A stretch of DNA of 64,000 nucleotides from an uncultured virus (IMG/VR IMGVR_UViG_3300005826_000001). Taxonomy: Duplodnaviria; Heunggongvirae; Uroviricota; Caudoviricetes. The DNA lies in the IMG/VR virus record IMGVR_UViG_3300005826_000001, positions 1 to 64,000 of that record; one strand, written 5' to 3'. Shown here in pieces: positions 39,578 through 54,397 of the stretch (position 1 is the stretch's first letter; the number at the start of each line of letters is the position of its first letter). The notes beneath the pieces were generated by a model. That model was not told where the DNA came from. It searched no databases and saw only the letters and a list, made by a program, of their open reading frames with translations. The position numbers were made by a program, and so were the translations under genes.

Positions 39578-39845
39578 CGGAGTTGACTTTGGCGGTCTTG
39601 GAGAACATGCTCAATCGCGCTATGCGGAACCGATGCGACGGCGCCGCCGCCAACTACGCGGCGGCCATCGAGGTTCTACAGCGGAGAATTGAGGGGCAGC
39701 GCGCTGGCACGCGTGGGATAGACCAAGGGTTGCCAGACCCTGAAACCGAGCACCGGTTTCCAAGCCGGAGGGCCTGCGTGGTCGGCGGGGGTGCCTTGAC
39801 GGCACCTAAGCTCTACATCCCAGCCCCACCCTCCGAGCGAGGGCG

Positions 39846-40088
39846 TCAAGGCGCGGTGTAGTCAGCCTCAAAGATCTGAACGGCGACGGTCACGCAGTAG
39901 GCAGCAAGCTCTTCAGCGGTGAGAGTCTGGAAGGCACCCGCGCCCATGCCTTCCAGGACGCAAGCGCCCGCAAGCTCCTGCACTTTCTTGGTAGGATCTT
40001 TGGGTTTGGGATCAGGGCCAGCGATGCTGCTGGCGACGGGCACGACCATAGCAAGGGCAAGCCCGAGGGCGATGATCACTTTATGCAT
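39846..40088 (-). CDS. Small secreted protein
   Basis: GGGAGG RBS on the minus strand; signal peptide MHKVIIALGLALAMVVPVASSIA. Confidence 0.65.
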   Translation of the reverse strand: MHKVIIALGLALAMVVPVASSIAGPDPKPKDPTKKVQELAGACVLEGMGAGAFQTLTAEELAAYCVTVAVQIFEADYTAP

Positions 40089-40149
40089 TGTTGTCCTCCC
40101 TTGAGTACAGTCTAGCCGAAGCTGCTCAAGCGAGCTATCCTGCCGGGAC

Positions 40150-40375
40150 CCTGGATGCTGGAGATTTGGCGTCGGCGGAATGTATGCCGCCGGTCAACAG
40201 CAGGAATTGACCTGAGTCTGTGGAGCACAGGCGAGCCGGGGAACACAGCGCGATGTCTGTTGGCCAGCATCGCGCCGCTCTGCCGGTCATAATCCCTTCG
40301 CGGAAAGCCGATGGCTGCGAAGCAGGCAAATCGTGACGCCGTGGAACAGGGAGGTTCCACACCTCCGGCACCAGG
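40150..40375 (+). ncRNA. Candidate structured non-coding RNA (~225 nt, multibranched)
   Basis: Closing stem 40150-40163/40363-40375, inner stem GGCGTC/GACGCC and six internal hairpins, found by eye; strand uncertain. Confidence 0.5.
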
Positions 40376-40395
40376 TAACTGAACAGGAGCGCAAG

Positions 40396-40575
40396 ATGTC
40401 AGAAAAACAAATCAAGAAGGTGAAGGAAACAACAGTGAAGCTGGCAGTGGCGGCGATGTCCGCCAAAGCATTTGAGAATTTTGACTCCGATGAACTAGCC
40501 CAATATTGTTGGGACGTTGCGGCGGCCATCGACGCCTTTGACGACGATGACATTGAAGAGGATGATGACGAATGA
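40396..40575 (+). CDS. Small acidic protein resembling the divergent secreted protein
   Basis: AGGAG RBS; AF..F...ELA.YC..VA..I. Confidence 0.55.
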   Translation: MSEKQIKKVKETTVKLAVAAMSAKAFENFDSDELAQYCWDVAAAIDAFDDDDIEEDDDE

Positions 40576-40802
40576 AGATGACGTTTGGCGAAGCACTTGA
40601 GCAGCTCAGAATCGGCGGCAAGGTCTACCGCGAAGGATGGAATGGCAAGGGCATGTGGCTCGCGTTGCAGGAGCCGGATGAGAACTCAAAGATGACTTTA
40701 CCATACATCTACATGAGCACGGTGACAGGGGACCTCGTGCCTTGGCTGGCATCGCAGACCGACATCCTGGCGATTGATTGGTGTCGGATAGATGAGGGGT
40801 GA
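40572..40802 (+). CDS. DUF2829 / Tad2-like (Thoeris anti-defence) protein
   Basis: MTFGEAL..L..G.KV.R.GWNGKGMWL...PWLASQTDILA.DW is the DUF2829 signature. Confidence 0.8.
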   Translation: MKMTFGEALEQLRIGGKVYREGWNGKGMWLALQEPDENSKMTLPYIYMSTVTGDLVPWLASQTDILAIDWCRIDEG

Positions 40803-41219
40803 ATTGCGAATCAGCAAACGCGCCCATCTTTGTCGCCGTTGCGCGGCTCAATCCAAATGATCAAAGTCCATCACGTTATCGGCTTGAGCACCTTCTGTCG
40901 CCAGCCGCTCGTGAATTTGATACCACTCGACCAACACCGTTGGATACGGGTCGGAACCATCGTGGACCGTCGGAGGATCATGGACGGCGCCGAGATGTGT
41001 CCGGTGTGCGCCGCCGAATATGAAGCGTGGTTGGAATATCAACGTCCAGCTCCAGGGGAGGGAGATGGCGTGCGATCAAGACTTCATGGTGGCAGTTGTG
41101 TTGGCGACAATCGTGGTGGGGGCGATTGAGTTTCGCCGGTGGAAAGAAGGGCGGCAACGGCGCTTCTGGATGAAAATGATAGAGCACCAAGAGAAGTTCG
41201 ACAGAGAAAGCAAGGAGCG

Positions 41220-42844: not shown

Positions 42845-43186
42845 ATGACTCTGATAGAACAGCTGAAGGACAGGATTCAGGGCAAAGCGCCGAAGGGCGC
42901 CAAGCGGAGTCCCAGTTGGAGCAAGATCAGGGCAGCCCATCTAGTAACACATCCGGTTTGCCAGGTGTGCGGGAGCTCAAAGAGGCTGGAAGTCCACCAC
43001 AAAATCCCGTTTCACCTGGCGCCGGACATGGAGCTTTCAACGTCCAACCTGATGACCTTGTGCGAAAACAGACGCTATGGGATCAATTGTCACTTGCTTA
43101 TCGGCCATCTAGGCAATTATCGTCGTTTCAACAGCGAAGTGTATTTGGATGCGATGATCTGGATGCACAAGCTGAAGGGAGGATAG
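42845..43186 (+). CDS. Small HNH endonuclease
   Basis: W...R...L..HP.CQVCG...EVHH..P...NL.TLC...CH. Confidence 0.85.
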   Translation: MTLIEQLKDRIQGKAPKGAKRSPSWSKIRAAHLVTHPVCQVCGSSKRLEVHHKIPFHLAPDMELSTSNLMTLCENRRYGINCHLLIGHLGNYRRFNSEVYLDAMIWMHKLKGG

Positions 43187-43191
43187 TTGTC

Positions 43192-43416
43192 ATGGCCGAG
43201 GCACTGCTCAAATTTGACCTCATTGAAGAGCGTGAAGACTTCGACAACGCCATCAAGGGCAGCTCCTATCGCTCCGCGCTGTTCGACATCGACCAGTGGT
43301 TGCGTTCCAAACTCAAATATGAAGAGTTGACTGAAGCCCAACACGAAGCATACGAGACGACGCGGAAACAGCTCTGGGACATCCTGAATTCCAACGGTGT
43401 TGAAGAGCTGTGCTGA
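43192..43416 (+). CDS. Hypothetical phage protein
   Basis: GGAGG RBS; LKFDL.EE..DF..AIKG...L.DIDQ.LR..LKY. Confidence 0.6.
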   Translation: MAEALLKFDLIEEREDFDNAIKGSSYRSALFDIDQWLRSKLKYEELTEAQHEAYETTRKQLWDILNSNGVEELC

Positions 43417-43427
43417 CGGAGGGTGCG

Positions 43428-43673
43428 ATGGTGATGGATATGTCAGACCTGGAAGATCGCTTTGTGTATCACCCGCCCAACGCCAACCAGCAGCGCCAAT
43501 ACGAGAAGGTGCGCGGGATGGCTTGGGCGTTTGCCAAGTTGCTGTCAGCGGTGGTTCCAGCAGGACGGGAGAAAGCACTGGCGTTCACGCATCTGGAGCA
43601 AGCGATGATGTGGGCCAACGCCGGCATCGCTCGACACCCAGATGGGGCGTCAGAGCCATCTCCGTCAGCATAG
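43428..43673 (+). CDS. Tad1/Acb2-like helical-hairpin protein (candidate immune-signal sponge)
   Basis: RF.YH.P...GREKALAFTHLEQAMMWAN..IA resembles the RE...A.T..EEA.MW hairpin of Tad1/Acb2-type proteins. Confidence 0.6.
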   Translation: MVMDMSDLEDRFVYHPPNANQQRQYEKVRGMAWAFAKLLSAVVPAGREKALAFTHLEQAMMWANAGIARHPDGASEPSPSA

Positions 43674-44169: not shown

Positions 44170-44272
44170 GGGCACCTCCCTTGTGGCAACTCTTGGAAGT
44201 GTAACCGACAGAAGGACTCCGCGCCGCTGTTTCAGCTAAGATACTTACACCACATACTTCAGCGAGGTGATC

Positions 44273-46078
44273 ATGAGGTTACTATCATCCATCTGCGCGG
44301 CAGCCCTGTTGGCGGGCTGCTCTGTGATCCAATTCCGGCTGCACAAACCCGAGCCCGTGCTGTTGCATGCCTATTCGCAGTTGCCGACCAGCAGCGCTGC
44401 GATCAAGAACCTGAACAGGGACTCGGACGGGGATGAATGGATGGTGGGTGGGTTGATCCTCCCTGAAAAACAAGAGCTGGAGCAGGTGCCGGTGTTACAG
44501 CTTCCCGCGCGGGCGCGCGGGCTCGCGGGCGCGTTGCCTCGCATGGTGGACAATTCCGCCAAGAAGTATTGGCGAGGTATCTTTACTCAGAAGCACGGGA
44601 GCTGTGCTCAGGCCAGCGCTATCGCCTATGTCTATGGCTATGAGGTCAATCGGCTCCGGAACCTGGACGCCAGCGACCCTGTGAATAAGTATCCCACGCA
44701 CTGGACATACAACTTTGTCAATGCCGGATATGATCGGGGCTCGTGGATGATGTGGGGCTGGGAAGTTGGCAAGAGTCTAGGGATCCCGAGTGCCAAGGCA
44801 TACGGGACAGAAACCGGCTATGATCTGCAATATTGGCCATCTGACTATGCCGTGTATGAGGACGCCATCGACAACCGGGTGGACCGATACTTCATCATGC
44901 GCATTGACACCAAGGCGACGCTGGAGCAGTTCAAGCGCTATCTGTACAACCACGGAGCTGATGGCCAAGATGGCGGGGTGGTGTCCATCGCCGCCGGCTG
45001 GTCAACGGGCTACACAGAGGCACGCATCCCAGAGGGCCAACACGGCGCCGGCAAGAAGCTCATTCAGAGCTTCGGAGCCCAAGTCAACCACGCGGTCACC
45101 ATTGTGGGCTATGACGACGACATCTGCCACGACTTCAACGGGGATGGCATCTGCACGGATGATGTGGACTTGAACGGGGATGAGAAGATTGACCTGAAGG
45201 ACGCCGAGAAGGGCGCCTTCATCATGGCCAACTCTTGGGGTGTCGGGTGGGGCAACGACGGATACATCTACATCCCATATCGGCTGGGTGCTGTCGGTCA
45301 CGCAGAGGGTGGCATCTACATGAGCTATGTGTATGGGGTGATTCCTCGGGTCGACAAGGACAAGCAGTTGGTGTTGCGCCTGGCCATGCAGCACGACAAG
45401 CGCAACAAGCTCCGCCTGATGAGCACCTATGAGCGGGCCAAGGACAACAAGAAGCCCTCCAACTACAGCTACTATGGCTTGCAGGCGAGCGGCGGCAACT
45501 ATCCGCTCAACGGCAAGGACGGAGGGGCGGTCACCTTCGGGTTGGACCTCGATCTGCTGTTGGGCAATGAGAATCTGAAGCAAACACTGGACATCGGGAG
45601 CGTCGTGGACGCGGCCAGCGGCGGCGTCGGCAAAATTTTGTCAATGGAGATTGTGGACTATGTGAACAACAAGGTGACAGTCGCTGACGCTCGGGATGTC
45701 AACATTGAGACCGGCCGCAACATCGTCCGGACCCTTTGGGACTCCGATGCCGATCCGGATCCGGAGCCGTTGAAGCCATGTCGAGTTGGGCCTGTGGCCA
45801 ATGCCGGCGCAGACATGATGGTCGGCGAATATTGCGCGCTGACGCTCGATGCGACAGGCTCCTATGATGCCGACGGCAAAATTGTCAAATATTCTTGGTC
45901 CCAATTGTATGGCCCTCAGAAGTTGGAGATCAAGAATGCCGACCAGGTGGCGGCGACAATCCTGATCCCCGTTGTGAAGGCAGATGAGCGCTATGCCTTC
46001 CGAATCACGATCACCGACAATGATGGATTTGTGACATCGGATAGCGTCGATGTGTTGGTGATCGATCGGTTTGAATGA
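44273..46078 (+). CDS. Papain-like (C1) cysteine peptidase lipoprotein with C-terminal PKD/Ig-like domain
   Basis: Lipobox LLAGC; Q.HGSC, NHAVTIVGY and NSWG..WG.DGY; DxNGDG Ca-binding repeats; PVANAG.D...LDATGSYD.DG.I..Y.W.Q. Confidence 0.85.
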   Translation: MRLLSSICAAALLAGCSVIQFRLHKPEPVLLHAYSQLPTSSAAIKNLNRDSDGDEWMVGGLILPEKQELEQVPVLQLPARARGLAGALPRMVDNSAKKYWRGIFTQKHGSCAQASAIAYVYGYEVNRLRNLDASDPVNKYPTHWTYNFVNAGYDRGSWMMWGWEVGKSLGIPSAKAYGTETGYDLQYWPSDYAVYEDAIDNRVDRYFIMRIDTKATLEQFKRYLYNHGADGQDGGVVSIAAGWSTGYTEARIPEGQHGAGKKLIQSFGAQVNHAVTIVGYDDDICHDFNGDGICTDDVDLNGDEKIDLKDAEKGAFIMANSWGVGWGNDGYIYIPYRLGAVGHAEGGIYMSYVYGVIPRVDKDKQLVLRLAMQHDKRNKLRLMSTYERAKDNKKPSNYSYYGLQASGGNYPLNGKDGGAVTFGLDLDLLLGNENLKQTLDIGSVVDAASGGVGKILSMEIVDYVNNKVTVADARDVNIETGRNIVRTLWDSDADPDPEPLKPCRVGPVANAGADMMVGEYCALTLDATGSYDADGKIVKYSWSQLYGPQKLEIKNADQVAATILIPVVKADERYAFRITITDNDGFVTSDSVDVLVIDRFE

Positions 46079-51580: not shown

Positions 51581-54397
51581 GTGAGTGACGAGGTGGTCAA
51601 CCTGCGCTCTCACATGCGTAGGACCGGCAAGTTGTATCTCGGGCTCCGCGTATCAGACCGAATGATCACCAAGGTGTTGCGGATCTCGGAGTTGTCGCAG
51701 ATGGCGAGGGCGGAGGTGCGCCTGCGGAGCCTGCTCTCAGCTCGATGGGACGCCCGAGCGGCGCAAGCCGCCACCATCGCGGCCAAGATGGCGTCCCAGC
51801 TCAAGCCGGCAAAGGACATCACATCCGCCGTTGACGAGATCATGGGCGGATGGGCCAAGGATGTTGAGGACATATTCCTGGTTGAGATGCGGCAGTTCTA
51901 CAGGCTAGGACGCATCCTTGGCCATAAGAAGGCACATCGGCAAATCACCCGGCAACTTCGATATGATGTGCCGGATGAGTCACCAGGAACCAAGGTGCCG
52001 AAGCTGGCGACGGTGGAGGATGTCACCAAGGCGGCGGTGAAGGCGGAGTTGTTGCCGGCGTTTGATGTCGTGGACGATGAAGCTCTGGCAGCCCTCCAAA
52101 AGAACCAGAAATTTTGGATCGGCTCGCACTACTCCAAGAACGTCGCCGATGAGATTGGGAAGGTCACCCGAGACACGATGATCGCCGCCGGCAAAGACCG
52201 GAAGGTGGCCGGCAAGCTGATGCACGAGCGGCTGAAGGCTGTGCTCGGGACGGTGAAGACTCCGGCGGGATTCAAGGGCACTTCCAGCCAGTATTTTGAG
52301 GGGCTGGTGGCCAACGCCGCCACCGTCGGGCGCGTCCACGGGCAGATGAGCAGCTTCATGTCCATCGGGATCACCCGATACAAGATCGTGAACCCGGGCG
52401 GGAGCCGGATCTGTCCCGTCTGCGCCCATCTCAACGGGACTGTGTTTGAGACCCGTTGGGGCGCCGAGCAGATGGGCGCAGAGCTAGCTGCCAAGAAGCC
52501 CGAGGACATCAAGCGACTGCACCCATGGAGATCGCTGAAGCAGGTCAAGGAGATCGCGCCCAAGTCCGGAGCGGAACGCGGCGGAGCCATCGGCAAGCAA
52601 GAGAAGGGGCTGGCCGACGCCGGGATGAGCCTGCCGCCATATCACTATCGTTGTCGGTGCAACGTGGATGTTGATGAGCAGATCGGTTCATATGATCAGC
52701 TGACACCGATGACTCCGCCGACGCCGACGGTGCCCGCGAAGCCAAAGGTGATGCCGCCGACGGCGCCGAAGCCACCGGTGACGGGCACGGCTCCGCCGGT
52801 TCAGGGCAAGTTGTCGCCGGATGACGTCATCGTCCAAAGGATGTTGGCGTCGCACGTGGAATCTTCAACCAAGCTGGGCAAAGGTGTCAACCAAGCGAGC
52901 AAGGCTGTCCTGCGGGCTCCAGACGGCAAGAAGACCACAGTTGTCCTGAAGTATGCCGATGACGAGCGGATGTTGATCCGGGAGTCCACCGGCATCAAAG
53001 GCGGGACCTATCACCAGCGTGAGGCGGCGTTCTATCAGCTGGACCGGGAGCTTGGGGGCAAGACTCTTACGCCGCCGACGGTGTCGCACGACTTCGGGAG
53101 CGGGCTCGGCAAGGCAAGTGCCCAGAAGTGGGTGGACGGAGCCAAGGTTGCCAACAAAACAATCGGCAACGCTTTGGCCAACGTCCCAGAATCTCAGGCG
53201 CGGCGGATGTTCCTGTTGGATGCCATTTCGGCCAATGACGATCGCCACACACTCAACGCGCTGTACAAGACGGTGGGCAAGAGAACAGATCTCATCGCCA
53301 TCGACAACGGGTTGACTTTCCCGCTCAAGCCAACAGGCAGGTTCTTGTTTGCCAAGGCTGAACACAATCTTCAAGACTTGATCCAATTGGACTCCGCCAC
53401 GCACTCTATGGTCAAAGGGTTGGATTTGAATCGGGTGGCGGCCATATTGGACGCCAACGGCATTGAAGAAACAGCCGCAAGGGCCGCTCTGATCAGGATC
53501 CGAGCACTTCAAGGGAATGCCAAGATCATCTTTCAACAGACTCACTCGCTGGGCGGCTCGAAAGTGGAGAGGGTGAGCGACTATGTGCTCAACTTCATTG
53601 AGGCATCCCACAAGGCTCCAACTAGGTTGCTGAGCAAATCGGCGTTGGGCGAAGTCGATGACGTGTTGGCCAAGCTGGCCAAGAGCAAAGCGGCGGTGAA
53701 GGCGCCGACGCCGCCAAAGGTGGCGCAAGTGTCACCCAAGAAAGTGCCGCCCAAGCCCACGACGCCCAAGCCCAAGCCGGCACCTCCGCCCAAGCCGCCG
53801 CCGGAGCTGAAGCCGGTGCCGCCGCCGGAGCCGCCGCCCAAGCCGGCACCGAGCGTGTTTGATGACAAGAAGCAGAAGTGGGCAGCGGGATTGAGCAGTT
53901 CAGAGAAGTCGGCGCTGCGGGCGTGGCAAGGTGATTGGTATGAGGACATCCGGGACTTCGATCGGCTAGGTGACGCCGCGAAGGTCGCCAAGGGCGCCCA
54001 AGAGAAGCACAAAGCCCTTGTGGCCGCAATGAAGAGAGCGCCCAAATTTGAAGGGGAGGTTTGGCGAGGGTTCAGCCAGCTCGACATTGAATTTGTGGAA
54101 AAGTTGATGCAAAGGGGATACATCTTTGAACAAGATGCTCTTGCTAGTTGGTCGCAGAGCAAGAGGGTGGCCCGAGGGTTTGCCGGAGGTTTGGCGAAGC
54201 CAAAGACCATGAATGTGGTCATGCGAGTGAAGACAAAGAAGGGCGTGGACATCGCAAACGTAGTGGAGGATTCAGCCGGCTTTGCTCAGGCGGAGCAAGA
54301 AGTGATCTTGGCCAAGGGCAGCAAGTTCAGAGTTGTCGGCGTCACCAAGGAGCTTGATAAAAATAGGGTGTGGCTGGACATGGAGGAGATCGATTGA
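51581..54397 (+). CDS. MuF/gp7-like head morphogenesis protein fused to PI3/4-kinase/HipA-like and ADP-ribosyltransferase domains
   Basis: CPVC...PPYHYRCRC (MuF); K, RE.A.Y.LD, N.DRH..N and AIDNG (kinase); WRG, SWS and EQE (R-S-E ART). Confidence 0.8.
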   Translation: MSDEVVNLRSHMRRTGKLYLGLRVSDRMITKVLRISELSQMARAEVRLRSLLSARWDARAAQAATIAAKMASQLKPAKDITSAVDEIMGGWAKDVEDIFLVEMRQFYRLGRILGHKKAHRQITRQLRYDVPDESPGTKVPKLATVEDVTKAAVKAELLPAFDVVDDEALAALQKNQKFWIGSHYSKNVADEIGKVTRDTMIAAGKDRKVAGKLMHERLKAVLGTVKTPAGFKGTSSQYFEGLVANAATVGRVHGQMSSFMSIGITRYKIVNPGGSRICPVCAHLNGTVFETRWGAEQMGAELAAKKPEDIKRLHPWRSLKQVKEIAPKSGAERGGAIGKQEKGLADAGMSLPPYHYRCRCNVDVDEQIGSYDQLTPMTPPTPTVPAKPKVMPPTAPKPPVTGTAPPVQGKLSPDDVIVQRMLASHVESSTKLGKGVNQASKAVLRAPDGKKTTVVLKYADDERMLIRESTGIKGGTYHQREAAFYQLDRELGGKTLTPPTVSHDFGSGLGKASAQKWVDGAKVANKTIGNALANVPESQARRMFLLDAISANDDRHTLNALYKTVGKRTDLIAIDNGLTFPLKPTGRFLFAKAEHNLQDLIQLDSATHSMVKGLDLNRVAAILDANGIEETAARAALIRIRALQGNAKIIFQQTHSLGGSKVERVSDYVLNFIEASHKAPTRLLSKSALGEVDDVLAKLAKSKAAVKAPTPPKVAQVSPKKVPPKPTTPKPKPAPPPKPPPELKPVPPPEPPPKPAPSVFDDKKQKWAAGLSSSEKSALRAWQGDWYEDIRDFDRLGDAAKVAKGAQEKHKALVAAMKRAPKFEGEVWRGFSQLDIEFVEKLMQRGYIFEQDALASWSQSKRVARGFAGGLAKPKTMNVVMRVKTKKGVDIANVVEDSAGFAQAEQEVILAKGSKFRVVGVTKELDKNRVWLDMEEID

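Follow-up and report, generated by a model that had tools for sequence, protein, structure and literature searches.

The window analysed here is a stretch of 64,000 nt from an IMG/VR record of 78 kb assigned to an uncultured Caudoviricetes virus (IMGVR_UViG_3300005826_000001). At 40150-40375, on the + strand, it holds an unannotated element of ~225 nt that lies between a - strand ORF (39846-40088; 80 aa, without a Pfam or PHROG match and given here for context only) and a + strand gene array starting at 40396. The array opens with a 59-aa ORF (40396-40575) that has an acidic C-terminus, matches no Pfam or PHROG family and lies outside the conserved unit described below; its ATG stands 20 nt past the end of the element, with AGGAG at 40385-40389. 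Further along the array are genes for a Tad2-like protein (40572-40802; PF11195, E = 5e-25), an HNH endonuclease (42845-43186) and an Acb2/Tad1-like hairpin-domain protein (43410-43673; PF24729, E = 4e-20), a counter-defence block with small family-less ORFs interspersed. Terminase, portal and head genes follow from 48244 onward. Two other proteins of the phage were also noted. A 938-aa head-associated protein (51581-54397) matches minor head protein PHROGs and carries a C-terminal ADP-ribosyltransferase domain (PF03496, E = 3e-5; phrog_832, "RNA polymerase ADP-ribosylase"), similar to injected Alt-like phage enzymes, and a 603-aa protein (44267-46078) combines a weak papain-family peptidase match with C-terminal PKD domains. 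Across the 6.2 kb compared, the window is identical to a phage genome of 105 kb that is complete and has direct terminal repeats, and the element is present as one copy per window-phage genome.

The initial annotation had drawn the element as a multibranched RNA-like fold. On inspection of the sequence and a bracket check, all of its helices were found where it had placed them, and they nest without conflict. The two ends pair into a terminal stem, P1 (40150-40163 with 40363-40375; 13 pairs, including one G.U, and one bulged A). Within P1 lies P2, formed by GGCGTC (40168-40173; invariant core CGT) and GACGCC (40335-40340), and H6 (40341-40360), a hairpin of GTGGAAC and GTTCCAC around the purine-rich loop AGGGAG, abuts both, such that P1, P2 and H6 form a tight three-way junction. 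Enclosed by P2 is a core of five hairpins, H1, H2', H3, H4 and H5, which invariant unpaired stretches connect. H1 (40174-40191) pairs GGCGG with CCGCC across 8 nt; H2' (40201-40214) pairs CAGG (40201-40204) with CCTG (40211-40214) across AATTGA; and H3 (40216-40232; GTCTG-TGGAGCA-CAGGC) has an invariant U.G pair and an invariant GGAGC in its loop. H4 (40235-40287) has an invariant base stem, GCCGG/CCGGT (40235-40239/40283-40287), which encloses a distal hairpin of variable length. In the window copy this hairpin is GCGCGATG/CATCGCGC (40248-40275), and the length of the enclosed insert or tip ranges from ~14 to ~100 nt across members of the family described below. H5 (40296-40322; CTTCGC-GGAA-AGCC-GAT-GGCT-GCGAAG) contains the invariant block AAAGCCGATGGC, which resembles a ribosome-binding site and AUG-GCU held in a hairpin. 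It is followed by a junction, CAGGCAAATCGT (40323-40334), with invariant columns, and an invariant run, GAAGCAGGCA (40319-40328), covers the H5 3' arm and the junction.

Searches for relatives yielded four diverged copies, of which three lie on viral contigs and the fourth comes from a metagenome contig, and hence five distinct sequences that are 53-73% identical to one another, with L114 and L115 close to each other. L050 was recovered by nhmmer (E = 2e-8) among 71 loci around terminase homologues, and its TerL is 68% identical to that of the window phage. Motifs common to the window and L050 copies were turned into exact-pattern scans, which added the viral contigs L114 (in G002, IMGVR_UViG_3300037851_000452) and L115 (in G003), as well as L104, a 2.6-kb metagenome contig. 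Six such scans of viral contigs returned four viral carriers only; twelve other matches of one of these scans were examined, and ten proved to be coding-sequence coincidences. The metagenome scan gave 18 matches, three of which are true (the window's twin, L050's twin and L104), and the remaining 15 were discarded as coding coincidences. No member was found in two scans of 185,579 species-representative genomes (0 matches; 2 coding coincidences). We also built two covariance models, R1 from the window copy and R2 from a 77-position 3' domain. The model from the window copy gave the four relatives scores of 130, 110, 70 and 54 bits, with no further match in 74 sources, and a search of 36 whole terminase-related phage records with R1 and R2 found no real copy, with R2 positive controls at 89-99 bits. 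The family as found is rare and sporadic.

Comparison of the five sequences revealed compensatory changes in the fold. In a model-fitted alignment (5 sequences, 63 pairs), 93.4% of cells hold standard pairs and 26 pairs change on both sides. Shifting the 3' partners by 1-3 columns as a control lowers these values to 32-46% and 1-7, and none of the observed measures is reached by any of 500 shuffles. Because this alignment leans toward the structure, we repeated the count for eight inner helices on a plain MAFFT alignment that was not structure-fitted. Here, 88.6% of cells are paired versus 35-45%, 13 pairs change on both sides versus 1-6, and 0 of 500 shuffles reach the paired share. Compensatory changes accompany the conserved fold in the four relatives, and the covariation statistics are thin because they come from five distinct sequences, two of which (L114 and L115) are near each other.

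The compensatory changes cluster in P1 (both sides altered in 9 of 13 pairs; 94% of cells paired), H6 (6 of 7), H1 (3 of 5), H2' (3 of 4; 100% of cells paired) and the outer pairs of P2, where the pairs flanking an invariant CGU/ACG core covary (G-C / U-A / A-U). Covariation neither proves nor disproves H3, the H4 base stem and the inner H5 stem, which vary little or not at all. H3 is paired in 100% of cells, with the U.G pair in all five sequences; the H4 base stem is invariant in all five and so contributes no covariation evidence; and one H5 pair reads G-C, G-U or A-U across members, with the outer H5 stem degenerate in L050. All five sequences share a common architecture of P1, P2, H6 next to P1 and a multi-hairpin core, and 30 unpaired columns are invariant, including AAUUGA (AAGUGA in L104), GGAGC, AAAGCCGAUGGC and GAAGCAGGCA.

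The same comparison redrew two of the helices in the initial annotation. Its GGTCAA/TTGACC hairpin (40192-40212) is present but is not the best-supported pairing: it is kept in four of five sequences with 80% of cells paired, yet 88 of 500 shuffles do as well, and the comparison prefers H2', with which it is mutually exclusive. Its GAGC/GCTC stem is likewise present but specific to the window copy, and the comparison prefers GCCGG/CCGGT as the base of H4. Alternative pairings recur among the relatives. GUC(A/G)A/UUGAC, mutually exclusive with H2', is conserved, and the 5' arm of H3 (GUCUGU) can pair with a distal GCAGGC (40322-40327) in all five sequences. These two alternatives could reflect a conformational switch, or simply repeated motifs. 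By eye, the H1 loop also seemed able to form a pseudoknot with the H4/H5 junction; this was dropped, as it holds in two of five sequences only.

Folding energies were compared with those of shuffled sequences on both strands. The window copy has a minimum free energy (MFE) of -107.4 kcal/mol on the + strand (z = -4.52) and -108.6 kcal/mol on the - strand (z = -5.66), and on either strand 0 of 200 shuffles fold as well, so that in this copy energy by itself does not separate the strands. The relatives have z-scores of -0.4, -1.4, -0.95 and -1.8; four of the five members thus fold no better than shuffles, and only the window copy is thermodynamically exceptional. The earlier remark that G-U pairs favour the + strand does not show in the energies of the window copy alone and is borne out once the relatives are compared: the five-sequence alignment contains 20 G.U cells versus 1 A.C cell (A.C being what a G.U on the opposite strand would give), and the + strand MFE is better than that of the - strand by 10.7 kcal/mol in L114 and 17.9 kcal/mol in L115. 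We take this asymmetry as a sign that selection has acted on the single-stranded + form of the element, and so as pointing to an RNA.

The element matches no RNA family that we searched. A cmscan of the whole window against the 4227 families of Rfam 15 gave 0 matches at gathering score; at a permissive E <= 10, the region 39800-40700 gave three chance matches, none overlapping the element; and the copies in L050, L104, L114 and L115 gave none at E <= 1. The element therefore lies outside all 4227 families in the window and in the four relatives alike, and the Rfam models of known ribozymes and riboswitches did not match the window element. The first impression, in which it was not recognised as a tRNA, tmRNA, RNase P, SRP RNA or intron, agrees with these searches and with ARAGORN, which called 0 tRNA or tmRNA genes in the window. 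Likenesses to a CsrA sponge, SRP helix 8, RNase P P4 and group II intron domain 5 were weighed and rejected, since the motifs are not conserved across members and no Rfam model matches. A blastn search of 40100-40400 against 50,697 phage records at E 0.01 returned no match, and a full-text literature search with the invariant motifs returned unrelated primer matches only. A catalogue of viral structured RNAs lists about 10,000 candidates (PMC10690425); the four contig numbers are absent from six of its supplement files, and the family may still be listed in three others.

We then compared the surroundings of the element in its five carriers. It is co-oriented with the downstream gene in all five, and the flanking protein genes differ in every one. 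The downstream neighbours are the Tad2 operon, an ORF with an HExxH motif, a small HTH protein, an 86-aa ORF ~300 nt off and a tRNA 4 nt off. The genes flanking the L050 copy are not homologous to those of the window, and the element is the sole similarity between the window and 19 kb of G002, as it is between the G002 and G003 regions. The tie to the Tad2-like operon, on which the initial annotation had leaned, thus found no support in the comparison: that neighbourhood occurs in the window only, one carrier of five, and the other copies lie between unrelated genes or, in L104, between tRNAs. In L104 the element starts 2 nt after a tRNA-like gene without a D-arm (28.6 bits; gathering threshold 29) and ends 4 nt before a tRNA gene that is cut by the contig end (58 bits). 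The tRNA-like gene (L104 2300-2363) has a truncated D-arm and a UUUUCAC anticodon loop and drew no ARAGORN call. G002 has tRNAs ~1.3-1.7 kb from the element, which itself lies ~2.1 kb downstream of a Ro60 homologue that precedes two YrlA-like RNAs and a tRNA. A tRNA context is therefore seen in one to two of five carriers; in the other three no tRNA was found near the element, two of those contigs being fragments.

The G002 Ro60/Rsr homologue (L118 5618-7204; 528 aa) has TROVE and Ro60 vWA domains and a radical-SAM gene upstream, and the two YrlA-like RNAs (37.6-37.7 bits; gathering score 69) and the tRNA lie at L118 7622-7722, 7760-7895 and 7974-8047. A search for TROVE and vWA_Ro60 in G000, G001 (complete) and G003 found none, leaving G002 as the only record with them, and the complete window-phage genome has neither tRNA genes nor a TROVE or Ro60-vWA gene.

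We found neither a promoter nor a terminator that would serve the element as a gene of its own. The ORF upstream of P1 stops 3 nt before it in L050 and 10 nt before it in L114, too close for a separate promoter; a sigma-70 scan of the 61-nt divergent spacer in the window (40089-40149) gave no promoter; and no conserved terminator or SD-sequestering platform was found 3' of the element in the five members. Directly 3' of the L050 copy (L050 590-660) there is a 13-bp hairpin (GGGCATGGGCAAA...TTTGCCCATGCCC) with no T-run, which could mark a 3' end or a processing site.

Public sequencing data were also considered. Parts of 39600-41200 occur in ten runs, of which eight are labelled metatranscriptomic. 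In four of the ten, six contigs cover 39636-39814, 39987-40308, 40201-40416, 40375-40572 and 40605-40755 at a depth of 2.1-4.3, over genes and element alike, without strand or end information and with DNA carry-over possible. The runs in which the phage is best represented come from an estuary and carry a metatranscriptomic label, and every sampled word of 39600-41200 is present in one of them; the source of the assembled phage genome may be RNA libraries or DNA carry-over in such libraries.

Together, these results identify the flagged stretch as a real, intricately folded non-coding RNA of a family carried by a few uncultured phages. The earlier suggestion of a new phage ncRNA is upheld by the + strand RNA-level structure, the compensatory changes in four relatives and the lack of a match in Rfam 15. 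Judging from sequence comparison, we consider it probable that 40150-40375 (+) belongs to a small, uncatalogued family of structured phage RNAs of ~185-250 nt that are stand-alone, of orphan function and cut from a longer transcript. The RNA would be transcribed within a longer + strand transcript with neighbouring genes or tRNAs, and would then be released, or persist, as a separate unit closed by P1. In L104 at least, it may be trimmed to roughly this unit by tRNA processing. The conserved core would act by binding a protein or a small ligand, or conceivably by catalysis, and the RNA would not be a dedicated regulator of the adjacent Tad2-like and Acb2-like genes.

Several other explanations were weighed against this reading. 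A cis-acting, riboswitch-like leader that controls the next operon (here the 59-aa gene and the Tad2-like and Acb2/Tad1-like genes) fits the short distance from the end of the RNA to AGGAG and the operon's first ATG, as well as the constant co-orientation with the next gene. Invariant junction nucleotides with a variable peripheral stem are typical of ligand-binding RNAs, and the two conserved, mutually exclusive pairings (GUCAA/UUGAC versus H2'; GUCUGU/GCAGGC versus H3) could form a switch. However, the five downstream genes or RNAs are unrelated and belong to no common class, nothing conserved after the element resembles a terminator or an SD-sequestering platform, and a site between tRNA genes, as in L104, is unfit for a riboswitch. 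A dedicated leader for the Tad2 operon is accordingly unlikely, and so is the more general leader. A passive mRNA element, that is, a stabiliser, processing site or exonuclease barrier with no specific partner, would explain the location inside polycistronic, co-oriented arrays, where L050 and L114 leave no space for an own promoter, and would suit the long, stable stems of the window copy. However, 30 invariant unpaired columns and a conserved multi-helix architecture at 53-73% identity exceed the needs of a stabiliser, and the relatives are not unusually stable, which makes this explanation rather unlikely too. A bolder version of the switch is that the family is a new sensing or catalytic class of phage RNA, whose two exclusive pairings would be set by a ligand or a protein; the module would gate the Tad2-like/Acb2-like operon 20 nt downstream in the window phage and be reused elsewhere in other transcripts, including tRNA precursors. 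We regard this reading of the sequences as improbable.

The remaining candidates do not treat the element as a non-coding RNA at all. It might act through its palindromes at the DNA level, for instance as a mobile element of the miniature inverted-repeat type, as an origin, or as a site of recombination or packaging. In the window copy the two strands fold equally well and the ends form an inverted repeat, and the distribution is sporadic, with no match in the 36 related phage records. Against this, the 20-to-1 asymmetry of G.U over A.C indicates one-strand selection; the end repeats differ completely between members while their complementarity is kept; each genome has a single copy, with no target duplication seen at the flanks; and one member lies between tRNA genes. 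We judge a DNA-level role very improbable. We think just as little of a small protein gene, read either from the invariant ATG at 40311 on the + strand or from a - strand ORF (40135-40371). Such a gene would account for the likeness of the invariant block GGAAAGCCGATGGC to a ribosome-binding site with a start codon, for the shared opening M-A-(A/V/M)-K-Q-A in all five members, and for the 78-aa ORF that is open on the - strand. Past these six codons, however, the + strand peptides share nothing, their lengths are 20, 23, 23, 28 and 67 aa, and variation at the third codon tracks the RNA pairing (G-C, G-U). No homologue of the - strand ORF turned up among the 42-137 aa proteins of a 5.8-billion-cluster collection, and its translation, which holds one frame across two conserved blocks in the window and L115, shifts frame in L114. 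A stand-alone structured RNA thus remains our preferred reading.

The analysis adds a defined family, with five sequences, a consensus structure and two covariance models, to a growing set of orphan phage RNAs, and members of this family occur within a tRNA array as well as at the start of a counter-defence operon. Intricately folded RNAs of more than 200 nt with invariant junction nucleotides are uncommon, and those that have been characterised tended to be ribozymes, riboswitches or scaffolds that organise proteins. Were the RNA to prove a sensor or decoy, it would be relevant to the ways in which phages schedule or safeguard the expression of early and accessory genes; should it be just one more orphan RNA, Rfam and structural probing would still gain a clean candidate.

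Several known RNAs share individual features with the element. In topology it recalls tmRNA, in which an end stem and a long-range helix surround a large internal domain and a hairpin abuts the 3' strand of the end stem, and its internal invariant AUG-GCU likewise opens a short frame. Unlike tmRNA, it gave 0 ARAGORN genes and no Rfam match, it lacks a T-loop, and P1 has a pair other than G.U at its third position. The 3' end is not followed by CCA in any of the five members (flanks TAAC, TTAT, AATA, TTCT and TACT), the H6 loops are purine-rich rather than UUCRA, and the frame, which continues across P2, H6 and P1, is not conserved. The FMN riboswitch (RFN element) has one closing helix around a junction with five hairpins, an arrangement that the closing helix and five-hairpin junction of the element resemble; the element differs in its extra outer stem P1 and H6, in having no Rfam riboswitch match and in having no consistent class of downstream gene.

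YrlA (RF02553) stands for the Y RNA-like RNAs of bacteria and phages, which act together with Ro60/Rsr. As in these RNAs, a long stem formed by the 5' and 3' ends of the element closes off a branched domain, and one carrier, G002, encodes Ro60 and two YrlA-like RNAs near the element. In addition, GUC(A/G)A/UUGAC resembles the Ro-binding helix of Y RNAs. Unlike YrlA, the element has no T-arm/D-arm-like module and did not match RF02553 (E <= 10 for the window, E <= 1 for the relatives), and the complete genome of the window phage is without a Ro60-type gene. Membership in YrlA was rejected, as the RF02553, T-arm/D-arm and Ro60-adjacency features are all absent.

Large phage RNAs offer a further comparison. 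ROOL, GOLLD and raiA RNAs are often found near tRNAs. ROOL and GOLLD are large, ornate RNAs associated with phages and prophages (10.1101/2024.12.08.627333), and the group spans about 200-800 nt. The element is like them an orphan, phage-borne, multi-helix RNA with invariant junction nucleotides that sometimes lies beside tRNA genes; it differs in its size of ~225 nt, in its architecture, in having no Rfam match and in being far rarer (five distinct sequences in the scanned collections).

By analogy, the closest known kind is the orphan structured phage RNA, of which the RNAs of the T4 tRNA cluster are an example. The T4 tRNA gene cluster encodes small stable RNAs (rnaC/rnaD, species 1 and 2), structured phage RNAs of orphan function. 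The element has no blastn similarity to them (50,697 phage records, E 0.01), is larger and more branched, and in the window phage occurs in a genome without any tRNA. Like rnaC and rnaD, it is a phage RNA that can sit in a tRNA array, 2 nt and 4 nt from its neighbours in L104, from which it would be freed by tRNA processing.
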